A stretch of 52,526 bases of DNA from an uncultured Clostridia bacterium (GCA_944380895.1 CALWJB010000071.1:1-52526), one strand, 5' to 3'; counted from the stretch's first letter, positions 46,962 to 49,943 are shown. Numbers and translations: made by a program. The notes: a model not told the origin generated them from the letters alone.

Positions 46962-47149
46962 AAAAATATTAAAATGTATTTACAAACGATTTATTATATG
47001 ATATAGTACACATTGTGATATGATCATGTCGGTATATTTTTGATTATTGAAGGAGATATATATGAAATTAAATCTAAAATTAACAAGTTTGCTTTTAGGT
47101 ACATGCGTACTCGCTGGACCAAGCGCCAGTGCAATGGATCCACATGACC
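46962..47149 (+). repeat. 5' module, copy 1 (promoter + RBS + signal-peptide codons), paralogous to 48298-48485
   Basis: My hand alignment is 188 nt against 188 nt with no indels and roughly a dozen mismatches. It contains TTTACA-17 nt-TATAGT (46979-47007), GGAG and the ATG at 47062. Confidence 0.9.
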
Positions 47150-47934
47150 GATATGAACTAGAACAGTTTACTTTAGCTGTTAGCGCTGCTAACGCTGATC
47201 TGGAACGTGCTAGAGATGACTTAGTAGCTGCTCAAGCTGATTTCGATTCTGCTCAAGCTGATTTCGATGCTGCTCAAGCTGCCTTAGAAGCTGCTGACGT
47301 TACTAAAGCTGCAAAAGCTGCAAAAAGAAGATTACAAGCTGCTAAAGATAGATGTAGGCGTGCAGCTTCGGAAGTTCGACAAGCTGAAAGAGCTGTATCT
47401 GAAAAAGAGTCCATTGTGCATACTGCGCGTGGTGGTACCGTATTTGTAAAAAATTTTAATGGATTATTGTGTCCTGGGAAACTTTATAAATCACTTAAAT
47501 CTGTTTACAATAACGATTCTAACGTAATCGTAATTGTGGGTGAGTCAAGAAATATCAATTTTTGGAGCCCGAACCCAGCTGACCGCCCTGGCAATATTAA
47601 TCCGTTGGTGATGTCAATTACCCCAGATATTGAAGTCTCTAGTTCGGAGGTAATTAACAGAGGAGTCGAATACGATACTTACAGGATACAACTGCATCCG
47701 TTGAGGTTGAGTAGAGAGCCTTCTAAATATGTGGATGTTGTGGTTTATAAAGATTGGAATTTTGCAGAAGATAGACCAAGGGATGATGCTGCATTTAATG
47801 CATTTTTAAACGATTTGGCGCGCAATTATTATAGAAAACCGACAGTATTTCATTGCGGTTCCAGGAACCGTTTATCAATTACGCTTGATGCTTTTCGTAT
47901 TTTGCGCGCTTACTGTGAACCATTAACCCGTTAG
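47062..47934 (+). CDS. secreted coiled-coil protein with degenerate PTP-like C-terminal domain (candidate pseudophosphatase)
   Basis: The signal peptide MKLNLKLTSLLLGTCVLAGPSASA is followed by an Ala-rich heptad region (AAQADFDSAQADFDAAQAALEAA...). The C-terminal domain is colinear with the neighbouring PTP. NVIVIVGESRNINFWSPNP matches NCLVVLGPTD..NYWNP. VVVYKDWNFAEDRP matches IKLYHYQQWPDRSTP. TVFHCGSRNRLSIT matches VLVHCSAGIGRTGT. Confidence 0.75.
   Translation: MKLNLKLTSLLLGTCVLAGPSASAMDPHDRYELEQFTLAVSAANADLERARDDLVAAQADFDSAQADFDAAQAALEAADVTKAAKAAKRRLQAAKDRCRRAASEVRQAERAVSEKESIVHTARGGTVFVKNFNGLLCPGKLYKSLKSVYNNDSNVIVIVGESRNINFWSPNPADRPGNINPLVMSITPDIEVSSSEVINRGVEYDTYRIQLHPLRLSREPSKYVDVVVYKDWNFAEDRPRDDAAFNAFLNDLARNYYRKPTVFHCGSRNRLSITLDAFRILRAYCEPLTR
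47230..47268 (+). repeat. in-frame 21-nt-period tandem repeat (heptad AQADFD[S/A])
   Basis: gctcaagctgatttcgat occurs at 47230-47247 and again at 47251-47268. Confidence 0.9.
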
Positions 47935-48012
47935 GTTAAAGAAATAAAAAACCATACACATTTACAGTTATAAAAACTGATCAAAAAAGTATTAATTAGG
48001 ACATTTATGTAA

Positions 48013-48265
48013 ATTTTTAATCTACATATTGTTATTTAGGAAAAATCAATTTGCTGATATAATATCTATAATGATGTTGTATCAGTGTTTTTATTGTTTC
48101 TTCAAAAATCCGGGGACATTTAAATCCACCGAAAAATGCATTTAGATTGAATTTATTTTCAAAATATATTATTATACCAAAAAGGTGATTTAACATATAA
48201 TATAAAATGCTTGTAAACATGACTCACAGAATCGGAAAAAATTTATGAAAATAAAATCATACCAA
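48013..48265 (+). repeat. 3' module, copy 1, paralogous to about 49664-49943
   Basis: High identity with a few indels. One shared block is gttatttagg.aaatcaatttgctgatataatatcta..gtgatgttgtatcagtgtttttattgtttc. The boundaries are approximate. Confidence 0.85.
48195..48265 (+). pseudogene. decayed 5' stub of the M15B carboxypeptidase gene (copy of 49871-49943)
   Basis: It aligns to ATGGATTATAAAATGCTTGTCAACAGAACTCAC... of the intact gene. Here ATG has become ATA, codon 2 is TAA, and there is a 2-nt deletion further on. Confidence 0.8.
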
Positions 48266-48297
48266 TGTGTCTAAATAAACTTTACCATCTTTAAAAC

Positions 48298-48485
48298 AAA
48301 AATATTAAAATGTATTTACAAATGATTTATTATATGATATAATACATATTATGATATGATCATGTCATTATATTTTTAATTGTTGAAGGAGATATATATG
48401 AAATTAAATCTAAAATTAACAAGTTTGCTTTTAGGTACATGCGTACTCGCAGGAACAAGCGCCAGTGCATCGGATCCACATGACC
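48298..48485 (+). repeat. 5' module, copy 2 (promoter + RBS + signal-peptide codons)
   Basis: See copy 1. It contains TTTACA-17 nt-TATAAT (48315-48343), GGAG and the ATG at 48398. Confidence 0.9.
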
Positions 48486-49657
48486 ATAGCGACGACGTTG
48501 GCGACCATCACTACGTTCCCTACGTTGGCAGCTTTCTCGACAATAGCGACGATAAAGACGATAGCAGCGATAATGACTTTAGCTCCGATGAAGACGATAG
48601 CAGCGATAGTGACTTTAGCGACGATAAAGACGATAGCGACGATAAAGACGATAGAGACGATAAAGACGATAGAGACGATAGAGACGATAGCGGCGTTGGC
48701 GACCATCACTACGTTCCCTACGTTGGCAGCTTTCTCGACAATAGCGACGATAGCGACGATAGCGACGATAGCGACGATACACGGATAGAAGAATCGTTCT
48801 TTACATTACCTAATCCTCCGCGTAGTACACAGTTCTGTTCAGACAGAGATAGATATCCTAAGGTTGGCACAGTTCGTCAGGCTCCAAGAAAGCCCGAACA
48901 CCAATCAGATTTGCGTGACGAATATCGTTTACGTAGTGGAGCGAAGATTAACGCAACTAAAGTTTTAAAAATACCTCGTTCAGAAACCCATGGTAAGGTT
49001 TCTGCTATAGCGACTCAATGCCCACATAATCCTACTGCCTTGAGTAATTTTTTCGAATTAATTTGTACTAGTGAAATAAACTGTTTAGTTGTTCTTGGTC
49101 CAACAGATCCTGCTAGATTGTGTAATTATTGGAATCCAACTGCATCAGAGCGACAATTAAGTGTAGATGACCGTACTATTGCTAGTGATAATTGTTACTA
49201 TAATATCGTTTCGAGTCGTATAAATCGCCAAGAACCAGGTTATACAGTCTATGATCTTGAAATCGGTGAGTTTCTCGGCGGCGTGCGTACCGCTACCCGT
49301 TCTAAAAAGATTAAACTGTACCATTATCAACAATGGCCTGACCGTAGTACACCTACAAATGTAAATAATTTTTATAATTTTGTAGATCATATTGCTTCTT
49401 TACCAAATAATGGTGATAATTTAAAGGTATTAGTACATTGTTCTGCGGGCATAGGTCGTACAGGAACGTTCCTTGCATGTTTGATATCTGCAATTGAACA
49501 ACCTACTATTACAATTCCCCCCGAAGCTGTCACATATGCTCAAGATGTAGTTAAAAATTTGCGCAAACATAGATCTTGTATGGTTCAAACTCCAGAACAG
49601 TATGAAATATTATATAATTTTATTATATATCAACAAGTGCAAAGAAGATTGTATTAA
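48398..49657 (+). CDS. secreted classical (class I, YopH/PTP1B-type) protein tyrosine phosphatase with acidic repeat linker
   Basis: Signal peptide MKLNLKLTSLLLGTCVLAGTSASA, then a D/S-rich repeat region. The PTP motifs appear in canonical order: KINAT, AIATQCP, YHYQQWPDRSTP (WPD), VHCSAGIGRTGT (HCX5R) and MVQTPEQYEILY (Q-loop). Confidence 0.85.
   Translation: MKLNLKLTSLLLGTCVLAGTSASASDPHDHSDDVGDHHYVPYVGSFLDNSDDKDDSSDNDFSSDEDDSSDSDFSDDKDDSDDKDDRDDKDDRDDRDDSGVGDHHYVPYVGSFLDNSDDSDDSDDSDDTRIEESFFTLPNPPRSTQFCSDRDRYPKVGTVRQAPRKPEHQSDLRDEYRLRSGAKINATKVLKIPRSETHGKVSAIATQCPHNPTALSNFFELICTSEINCLVVLGPTDPARLCNYWNPTASERQLSVDDRTIASDNCYYNIVSSRINRQEPGYTVYDLEIGEFLGGVRTATRSKKIKLYHYQQWPDRSTPTNVNNFYNFVDHIASLPNNGDNLKVLVHCSAGIGRTGTFLACLISAIEQPTITIPPEAVTYAQDVVKNLRKHRSCMVQTPEQYEILYNFIIYQQVQRRLY
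48497..48790 (+). repeat. in-frame repeat array: 58-nt perfect direct repeat (48497-48554 and 48695-48752) bracketing and followed by gacgat(a/t)(a/g)(a/c)-type 9-nt units
   Basis: The sequence gttggcgaccatcactacgttccctacgttggcagctttctcgacaatagcgacgata occurs twice (it encodes VGDHHYVPYVGSFLDNSDD). Between and after the two copies are runs of gacgataaa, gacgatagc and gacgataga. Confidence 0.9.
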
Positions 49658-49663
49658 AATATA

Positions 49664-49943
49664 ATTTTTTAACTTACATTGTTATTTAGGAGAAATCAAT
49701 TTGCTGATATAATATCTATGGTGATGTTGTATCAGTGTTTTTATTGTTTCTGCAAAAAATCAAGAATATTTAAATCCACCGAAAAATGCATTTGGATTGA
49801 ATTTATTTTCAAAATATATTATTATACTAAAAACGGATTTTAAATTTTTTTATGTAAAGGTGGTTTAAAAATGGATTATAAAATGCTTGTCAACAGAACT
49901 CACAAACTCGAAAAAGAAGTTTATGAAAATGAAATCGTACCAA
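49664..49943 (+). repeat. 3' module, copy 2 (runs into the first ~24 codons of the carboxypeptidase gene)
   Basis: See copy 1. The boundaries are approximate. Confidence 0.85.

Follow-up and report, generated by a model that had tools for sequence, protein, structure and literature searches.

The vsp genes of Mycoplasma bovis combine a highly conserved 70-bp upstream block and 31-amino-acid (aa) leader with a variable remainder, and their number differs between strains (6 vs 13 genes; PMC3365025). The tandem lpl paralogues of Staphylococcus aureus are rearranged by homologous recombination, and their conserved unit covers the 3' end, the DNA between the genes, and the 5' end (PMC2568036). A locus comparable to both was analysed in a 52,526-nucleotide (nt) stretch of DNA from an uncultured Clostridia bacterium (GCA_944380895.1 CALWJB010000071.1:1-52526), hereafter the window, in which positions are counted from the first letter. 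The window array lies between prfA (release factor 1) and a vanY-like D-Ala-D-Ala carboxypeptidase gene and consists of two cassettes in the same orientation, A followed by B, each holding one gene between a 5' and a 3' module. These cassettes are likely to belong to a copy-number-variable tandem array of Sec-secreted paralogues with a protein tyrosine phosphatase (PTP) fold that evolves by birth-and-death with concerted flanks and diversifying mature parts.

The array resembles the vsp/vpma systems (M. bovis and M. agalactiae) in its conserved upstream and signal-peptide block, variable remainder, in-frame tandem repeats within the mature part, and strain-variable gene number. However, the vsp/vpma products are lipoproteins whose payload is a repetitive surface antigen and which are inversion-switched by a neighbouring Xer-type site-specific recombinase, whereas the leader in the array is of the signal peptidase I (SPase-I) type without a canonical lipobox and its payload is a PTP enzyme fold. 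Each cassette also has its own promoter, and all point in one orientation with no significant inverted repeats linking them and no adjoining recombinase. With lpl (nuSa-alpha) the array has in common a tandem paralogue cluster, a presumed role in host interaction, and recombination at conserved blocks; strain differences in paralogue number and order with junctions in the conserved blocks, a trait of lpl, were likewise found (A-B; D-E-(..)-A'-B'; a B-like cassette first). The lpl recombination block lies in the middle of the open reading frame (ORF) and is flanked by variable regions, whereas the conserved blocks of the array flank a variable centre, and its repeat unit, unlike that of lpl, carries along a piece of a housekeeping gene.

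Few bacteria have classical eukaryote-type tyrosine phosphatases, and the known examples are mainly virulence effectors that are injected, such as YopH of Yersinia and SptP of Salmonella, which Gram-negative pathogens deliver by type III secretion. Gene B shares with the classical PTPs (YopH, SptP, PTP1B, and RPTP alpha) the PF00102 domain, the HC(X5)R motif, the WPD loop, and the Q-loop, and it matches the SptP model weakly, but it differs from YopH and SptP in its predicted Sec signal peptide, acidic repeat linker, membership of a multigene array, and occurrence in a Gram-positive-type gut commensal lineage. Most pseudophosphatases known so far are intracellular proteins of eukaryotes. The F type, a relative of the window genes found at another locus, is like the STYX-type pseudophosphatases in having a full-length PTP domain with the catalytic Cys replaced by Ser and the Arg by Tyr, whereas the A, D, and E types are unlike known pseudophosphatases in being truncated after helix alpha-4, with A also fused to a coiled coil. 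The family differs from the known bacterial cases in four respects: its gut commensal lineage, its predicted Sec export, its multiplication into a strain-variable set, and a majority of members that are catalytically dead yet positively selected. Such a pattern is a hallmark of arms-race molecules and makes the locus a candidate for commensal-host, commensal-phage, or commensal-competitor interaction.

Cassette modules, junctions, and copy number

A first-pass annotation made from the sequence had described a tandem cassette duplication in which near-identical 5' modules and longer 3' modules frame two strongly diverged payloads. Formal alignment of the 188-nt 5' modules (46962-47149 and 48298-48485) agreed with the hand alignment behind that description, giving exactly 12 mismatches and no indels (93.6% identity), and the ungapped likeness reaches back to 46952 and 48288 (198 nt, 92%). 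Both leaders contain one identical 53-nt run that is found at no other place in the window, the chance expectation being zero. The promoters were located as TTTACA-17-TATAGT (46979-47007) and TTTACA-17-TATAAT (48315-48343), each having the TG of an extended -10, followed by the ribosome-binding site (RBS) AAGGAGA at 47049 and 48385 and by 29 codons common to A and B, MKLNLKLTSLLLGTCVLAG(P/T)SASA(M/S)DPHD. The 3' modules (48007-48265, 259 nt; 49660-49943, 284 nt) are 87% identical over ungapped columns, with one 26-nt gap, one 2-nt gap, and small further gaps, and the onset of the module is the stop codon of B. The extension of this module into the carboxypeptidase gene, also proposed at first pass, was recovered as well: the stub at 48195-48265, of which the 5' end of vanY is the source, is 83% identical to vanY 49871-49943 (24 codons plus 1 nt) and has decayed by ATG to ATA, a TAA at codon 2, and a 2-nt deletion. 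The features of the locus are as follows.

46952..47149, (+) strand: 5' module copy 1, with an A-tract, -35 box 46979-46984, -10 box 47002-47007, palindrome 47016-47031, RBS 47049-47055, and ATG 47062; codes for the 24-aa signal peptide plus MDPHD
47062..47934, (+) strand: gene A, 290 aa, with signal peptide, coiled coil (aa 27-117), and putative truncated, dead PTP-like domain (aa ~137-290)
47227..47295, (+) strand: tandem repeat of 21-nt (heptad) units within A's coiled-coil region, found by Tandem Repeats Finder (TRF); copy number varies between strains
48007..48265, (+) strand: 3' module copy 1, "internal" type, with hairpin 48052-48087 and T-run, putative relic vanY promoter 48147-48175, and stub 48195-48265
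48266..48287, unstranded: 22-nt filler at the junction, linking the stub to the next 5' module
48288..48485, (+) strand: 5' module copy 2, with -35 box 48315-48320, -10 box 48338-48343, palindrome 48352-48367, RBS 48385-48391, and ATG 48398
48398..49657, (+) strand: gene B, 419 aa, with signal peptide, acidic D/S-rich repeat region, and intact classical PTP domain
48539..48779, (+) strand: 9/18/36-nt tandem repeats (TRF) coding for the acidic linker of B; length varies between strains
49660..49943, (+) strand: 3' module copy 2, "terminal" type, with hairpin 49702-49737, vanY promoter TTGAAT-17-TATTAT 49797-49825, and vanY RBS plus 24 codons
46821..46951, unstranded: prfA-side intergenic DNA upstream of the first 5' module, conserved in contigs L002 and L090
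45747..46820, (-) strand: prfA (release factor 1), left anchor, from the ORF call; 98.6% aa identity and dN/dS 0.09 against the L002 orthologue
49871..50488, (+) strand: vanY-like D-Ala-D-Ala carboxypeptidase, right anchor (Pfam PF02557, 1.3e-34); dN/dS 0.07

The comparison sequences were all contigs of short-read metagenome assemblies; many of them span no more than 1-2 kb and break off within repeats. In the relatives, the same stub and the same 22-nt filler were present at every internal junction, in keeping with the stub as the mark of a tandem duplication. The filler recurs at all internal junctions of L001 and L002 (both from ERZ18533965), in L086, and upstream of F in L093, and the stub end and filler are identical at each internal junction of the related strains and also before F, which lies at a different locus. 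The 358-nt unit formed by the 3' module, stub, and 5' module is 94.7-95.8% identical among the window, L001, L002, and the F locus. The identity of the stub end and filler at all internal junctions points to one founding duplication that was spread by unequal crossover.

Copy number in related strains, which the first-pass annotation had suggested comparing, was at least four cassettes in ERZ18533965 against two in the window. L002 ends sua5-prfA-D-E-(start of a third cassette), L001 starts in the A' leader and runs A'-B'-vanY-fmt, and the two contig ends overlap by 55 nt; this overlap fits an assembly-graph break at the repeat, and the minimum of four cassettes follows from it. In a third lineage, a B-like cassette stands directly after prfA (L090 and L091) and an A-like cassette lies downstream of a stub.

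These contigs also bear on whether the duplication is an assembly artefact arising from a repeat-induced misjoin or expansion. Short-read assemblies do break or misjoin at repeats of 200-300 nt and related contigs do end inside modules, but a second sample (L001) yielded the order A-stub-B-vanY with the same junctions in an independent assembly, and stub junctions recur in at least four samples. Between the window copies there are moreover 12 mismatches in 188 positions as well as indels, so that no collapsed or duplicated read path is involved. Since independent assemblies from several other samples contain the same structure and junction, an artefact in the window is very unlikely and the least credible of the explanations considered here.

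The likeness of the flanks stands against the divergence of what they enclose. The mature parts of A and B had been called barely alignable at the DNA level, and over aligned codons they retain 17% aa and 39% nt identity, with pS 0.64 and a saturated dS of 1.46 versus flanks that are 92% (5') and 87% (3') identical. The D and E cassettes show dS 0.38 versus flanks 96-99% identical, and over 11 cassette copies from seven samples the 5' module retained 83-99% identity. Functional constraint alone, acting on old duplicates without any gene conversion, is a possible reading of such flanks, because they do contain the promoter, palindrome, RBS, signal peptide, and terminator, and the 5' modules of B and its counterpart B' in L001 group by orthology with 99% identity. 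However, conservation is just as strong in parts without function, namely the 22-nt filler, the relic vanY promoter, and the decayed stub, for which reason constraint cannot explain the flank likeness, and the 110 nt of non-coding upstream DNA remain >90% identical while payload dS is ~1.5; this reading is rated as improbable. Derived leader substitutions are also common to paralogues within a lineage: in the third lineage, the A-like and B-like leaders carry the same three nt changes (T8M, L10I), which are absent from both paralogues of the window lineage. In L086, the 3' module after A is a mosaic that switches from the "internal" to the "terminal" variant, and the neighbouring stub upstream of A looks refreshed, being 98.9% identical to the real vanY yet retaining the ancestral junction. 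The shared leader changes, the 3' mosaic, and the refreshed stub together favour concerted evolution of the flanks by gene conversion and unequal crossover, coupled to birth-and-death of the cassettes.

Each repeat unit comprises a strong sigma-70-type promoter of its own, a conserved palindrome, RBS, and 24-aa signal peptide, then a fast-evolving mature part, and finally a terminator with a copy of the vanY promoter and the 24-codon stub. The founding tandem duplication ran from ~46952 (~110 nt before the cassette ATG) to vanY codon 24, making the stub junction that is seen in the sequence. Unequal homologous recombination at the inter-cassette units (~200-360 nt) may then have grown, shrunk, and reordered the array, outcomes that are directly visible among the strains, and the same process may have seeded copies at other loci in a related strain. 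Gene conversion, of which footprints were found, would hold the flanks 87-99% alike while the mature parts diverge to synonymous saturation. In the A, D, E, and F types, catalysis would have been lost by truncation or by Cys/Arg replacement, yet the genes appear intact and positively selected. As a natural case, the locus shows cleanly how regulatory and export modules evolve in concert while the payloads between them diverge, and its repeats explain why short-read assemblies break there.

Several elements within the modules have a predicted function. A 16-nt imperfect palindrome, TGATATGATCATGTC(A/G), lies just 3' of the -10 box and is nearly invariant in 11 of 11 cassette copies examined, including those at other loci. 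A search for TGATATGATCATGTCA across the whole window returned only the two 5' modules, with no link made to a regulator. The palindrome is a possible operator for a common regulator, and the common promoter and palindrome suggest co-regulation of the cassettes. The leader has a basic n-region, a 13-residue hydrophobic core, and ASA at -3/-1 (residues 22-24), and by these rules is a predicted Sec/SPase-I signal peptide that would direct Sec export. A lipoprotein leader was rejected, as L-G-T stands ahead of Cys15 and a Thr in position -1 misfits [LVI][ASTVI][GAS]C. Each 3' module has a 14-bp hairpin with a T-run (copy 1, dG -17.7 kcal/mol, z -5.0; copy 2, dG -18.8, z -4.6) that is a plausible intrinsic terminator of its cassette. 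Downstream of it, the vanY promoter at 49797-49825 is read as functional and the copy at 48147-48175 as a relic, and relic vanY promoters of this kind may give read-through. A riboswitch or leader structure in the 5' untranslated regions was rejected because folding was no better than in shuffled controls (z +0.8 to +1.0), and an Rfam scan of 46700-50000 (E <= 1) gave only a chance tmRNA_permuted match inside gene B, leaving the modules without a known RNA family. The 3' modules had no conserved ORF, the small ORFs at 48032-48220(-) and 49679-49843(+) not being common to both copies.

A further repeat of ~100 nt (GGCAGTGCAAA...GAAAACGAAAAATG) was observed on both sides of the F cassette (L093 5641-5741 and 7491-7593) and after the C unit (L084 1975-2033). 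It holds an RBS-like AGAGGTGA and a 14-codon mini-ORF, and seems to interrupt the 3' module, with CGAAAA(A)TG direct repeats on either side.

Tyrosine phosphatase payloads and selection on their mature parts

Gene B matched Pfam PF00102 with 110.2 bits (cut-off 20.9; E 1.6e-31) and carries the full set of catalytic motifs: DRDRY (48842-48856), WPD (49334-49342; aa 313-315), HCSAGIGRTG (49436-49465; P-loop VHCSAGIGRTG, aa 347-356), and QTPEQY (49586-49603; aa 397-402). Among solved structures, RPTP alpha, sigma, and epsilon and PTP1B come closest to it. With all catalytic motifs kept, B, and the C type found elsewhere, are predicted to be active secreted PTPs. Assignment of B as a PTP-like cysteine phytase was rejected, as its PF14566 score of 15.3 bits (E 0.021) stayed below the cut-off of 27 and was far lower than that for PF00102. 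The acidic linker differs from that of L001 by a 114-nt indel, and the B orthologues measure 419, 381, and 333 aa. A 19-aa motif, VGDHHYVPYVGSFLDNSDD, was observed twice in B (48497-48553 and 48695-48751), bracketing the acidic repeats; the B allele of ERZ18533965 has one copy, indicating a ~200-nt internal duplication in the linker. The 254-aa B-type protein P0130 diverges from its relatives near the C-terminus, which could represent a frameshift or the contig end.

Gene A had no Pfam match, and PF00102 was not reached even at E <= 1. Several lines of comparison nevertheless link it to the same fold. Searches with phmmer related A to the family PTPs P0003 and P0004 (E 4e-5 and 4e-4), and hhalign with the leader removed aligned the A/D/E-type profile with the B/C-type PTP profile over 129 columns (probability 95.8%, E 7.5e-9), the alignment stopping at the P-loop "HC". 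An AlphaFold (AF2) model of A comprised a two-helix coiled coil and then an alpha/beta domain, and a Foldseek search of this model against the PDB returned classical PTPs, PTP1B included, for all of the top 50 matches (E about 2e-6); the predicted local distance difference test (pLDDT) score of the model was only 65 and its input alignment included true PTPs. The P-loop remnant HCGSRNRLS at 47851-47877 reads C(X4)R, not C(X5)R, the WPD loop is replaced by KDWNFAEDRP, and the Q-loop region is absent. The Cys is not conserved within the type, being Arg in P0123 and Pro in D and E, and across A, D, and E the PTP core is kept, the catalytic residues are lost, and the protein is truncated after helix alpha-4. 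Gene A thus represents a catalytically dead PTP fold that is truncated and joined to a coiled coil, and the payloads of A and B are homologous and PTP-derived. A relation of the coiled coil to PgrA was rejected, as NCBIfam/Pfam coiled-coil matches were sub-threshold (PgrA 19.6 bits, cut-off 70) and were taken as compositional. The heptad repeat of A carries a 21-nt indel relative to L001, and P0131 has two extra units.

Selection on the mature parts was estimated from few sequences by pairwise Nei-Gojobori dN/dS. Between the window and ERZ18533965, the flanking genes gave dN/dS 0.07-0.17 (dS 0.03-0.08) and gene A 2.1; in other strain pairs the values were 1.6-2.6 for A, 3.3 for the PTP domain of B, and 2.5 for C. 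Pooled independent contrasts gave pN 0.102 versus pS 0.041 (Fisher p 8e-5), and in neutral mutation simulations (kappa 1-4) the mature-part pN/pS of 2.1-4.0 was reached in at most 1.5% of replicates for four of five comparisons; for gene A between strains the range was likewise 2.1-4.0. Diversifying selection on the mature parts is thus shown statistically, within sequence comparisons of this kind. Divergence is unevenly spread over B: identity drops to 60-90% in the stretches 48769-48948, 49189-49425, and 49546-49665, which surround the pTyr-recognition, WPD, and Q-loop regions, whereas the P-loop block is 95-100% identical.

The same values bear on the possibility that A and the other truncated members are decaying pseudogene duplicates of one functional PTP and that the array is genomic debris. 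Gene A does lack the C(X5)R motif as well as both the WPD and the Q loop, other strains have a different residue in place of the Cys, one allele stops prematurely, the repeats expand and contract, and B compared with L001 gave an omega of 0.8. On the other hand, the ORF of A is intact, with its own promoter matching 10-11 of 12 consensus positions, in at least four lineages with up to ~10% synonymous difference, and four inactive types (A, D, E, and F) are kept in one genome. A pN/pS of 2-4 lies above the neutral expectation of 0.7-0.95 (P <= 0.006), unlike relaxed constraint, and the excess of amino-acid changes in the dead A type argues against simple decay, so that debris is a doubtful account of the array. 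For the candidate pseudophosphatase status of the A type, the PTP fold, catalytic loss, intact ORFs, and pN/pS above neutral were observed, binding being its putative activity. The A, D, E, and F proteins probably act by binding, in a decoy- or STYX-like manner, on the same host- or environment-derived targets as B and C, and the family may have an extracellular role that faces the host or competitors.

A number of points weigh against the array of secreted, diversifying paralogues as proposed above. The signal peptide was judged by rule from the sequence; array lengths and orders outside the window are minimum or inferred values, chimeric contigs are possible among them, and the copy number of the window itself could be under-assembled. 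The dN/dS estimates are pairwise and draw on few sequences, the comparison of gene B with L001 falls below one (0.8), and the A-type allele of L087 (P0124) stops 26 codons early, which also fits partial decay.

Dispersed cassettes and distribution of the family

Use of the 5' module as bait for further family members, a course proposed at first pass, recovered the types D, E, C, and F. The C cassette, an intact PTP, adjoins tRNA-Leu outside the array. Behind it come 90 nt of 3' module, then vanY as a pseudogene (codons ~35-143, 96% identity with the window vanY), and a second copy of the prfA-side intergenic DNA (L084 1828-1975, ~92% identical) that stops precisely at the point where the 5' module would start. 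The product of the F cassette has 510 aa and includes a coiled coil; the cassette sits terminally on a contig other than the one bearing C and is preceded by the 358-nt 3' module/decayed stub/filler/5' module unit with 95% identity. The relics at the C and F loci show that the dispersed copies came from the prfA-vanY array.

Of the two histories that the first-pass annotation had left open, duplication and divergence with homogenised flanks drew support from the payload homology, the shared flank variants, and the mosaic, while the swapping of unrelated payload modules did not hold. The notion of modular swapping was retained only in the weaker sense that whole cassettes are gained, lost, and reordered through flank recombination, but the payloads so exchanged are homologous and not unrelated modules. 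An exchange of unrelated effectors behind a fixed leader, in the style of polymorphic toxins or gene cassettes and possibly site-specific or via a circle, would be consistent with a 5' module whose left end is the same in three contexts (prfA side, stub junction, and tRNA-Leu side) and with a C locus that resembles a circularly permuted unit (5' module-C-3' module-vanY'-prfA-side DNA) beside tRNA-Leu. Cassette order differs between strains, and B matches PF22785, a polymorphic-toxin PTPase family, weakly. Like polymorphic toxin systems, the array joins a constant N-terminal export part to variable C-terminal parts in alternative cassettes; unlike them, it has no immunity genes, each cassette is a complete gene with a promoter, and there is one payload fold. 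No immunity-like conserved ORF occurs in the 3' module, and no Rhs, LXG, or CDI-type trafficking domain was found in Pfam/NCBIfam scans, only the 24-aa Sec-type leader; a polymorphic toxin system was rejected on both counts. No integrase or recombinase lies beside the array, the nearest being a serine recombinase ~5 kb off that is also present in the cassette-free contig L003, and there are no attC-like or inverted-repeat sites, on which grounds an inversion switch and an integron-like cassette were also rejected. All payloads are PTP-derived homologues and ordinary homologous recombination accounts for all junctions, and the exchange of unrelated effectors was judged unlikely.

Beyond the array of secreted paralogues with concerted flanks, a broader picture can be drawn more tentatively, and the odds are against it. 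In a gut commensal Clostridia lineage, the cassettes would form a recombination-shuffled, positively selected repertoire of secreted phosphotyrosine phosphatases and of catalytically dead, phosphotyrosine-binding decoys, effector- or antigen-variation-like in its action against host, phage, or competitor, from which cassettes leave the array, perhaps as circles, and integrate, for example by tRNA-Leu.

The distribution of the family is very narrow. In the four closest sister species (L003, L005, L006, and L007), prfA lies directly beside vanY with an intergenic region of ~160-210 nt and no cassette, and in cassette-free L003 only the vanY promoter-proximal part of this region looks related to the modules, the rest being unalignable. 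The array is a lineage-specific insertion in the prfA-vanY intergenic region. Relatives of A or B occurred in 0 of 80 related loci, a family scan of 185,579 GTDB species representatives found none, and the exact 32-nt leader pattern had no match in JGI metagenomes. An exhaustive hidden Markov model (HMM) search of 1.84 billion representative proteins yielded only ~7 clusters, all with the same leader. A tblastn search of B against phage and plasmid collections gave no match and no sign of carriage by mobile elements, and nothing specific on secreted PF00102 proteins in gut Firmicutes was found in the literature. The family is new and its organisation is of a familiar type, and repertoires in metagenomes can be typed with the 5' module as a probe.

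Outside the family, P0005 is the PTP that comes nearest; it too has DS repeats and lies in L083 802-8207 (Logan SRR27608112). Its cluster, in a spore-former (SpoVAD nearby), includes a gene of the ADP-ribosyl-exotoxin-like kind, genes for a PG_binding_1 protein and a metallophosphatase, and two PI-PLC-X genes, and looks like an island of secreted eukaryote-like enzymes.

Setting of the locus

The PrfA of the window is 93% identical to that of a metagenome-assembled genome (MAG) labelled "uncultured Clostridia bacterium" and 66-85% identical to those of Eubacteriales, Acutalibacteraceae, and Oscillospiraceae MAGs, and the host is assigned by these matches as an uncultured gut Clostridia bacterium that is Oscillospirales-like. 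In a relative with 85% PrfA identity, the prfA neighbour is a 312-aa PPP-type Ser/Thr metallophosphatase (L004 4991-5929) with GDLHGN, GDYVDRG, and RGNHE motifs and an N-terminal signal-peptide-like leader, a different secreted "eukaryote-like" phosphatase in a position equivalent to that of the array.

On a larger scale, feoB is apparently split around a ~15-17 kb segment that contains the M18 peptidase, SLT, sua5, prfA, cassettes, vanY, fmt, MGDG synthase, and FTHFS genes. A 496-aa N-terminal part (window 41053-42459) lies on one side, and on the far side a large serine recombinase is followed by a 228-aa FeoB C-terminal fragment in the same orientation. The corresponding coordinates in relatives are L002 2789-4279, L001 7687-9845, and L003 2-1201 plus 10367-11749, the FeoB_N and recombinase ends thus also being found in the cassette-free species L003. 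The split could represent an intervening element or an old rearrangement enclosing essential genes.

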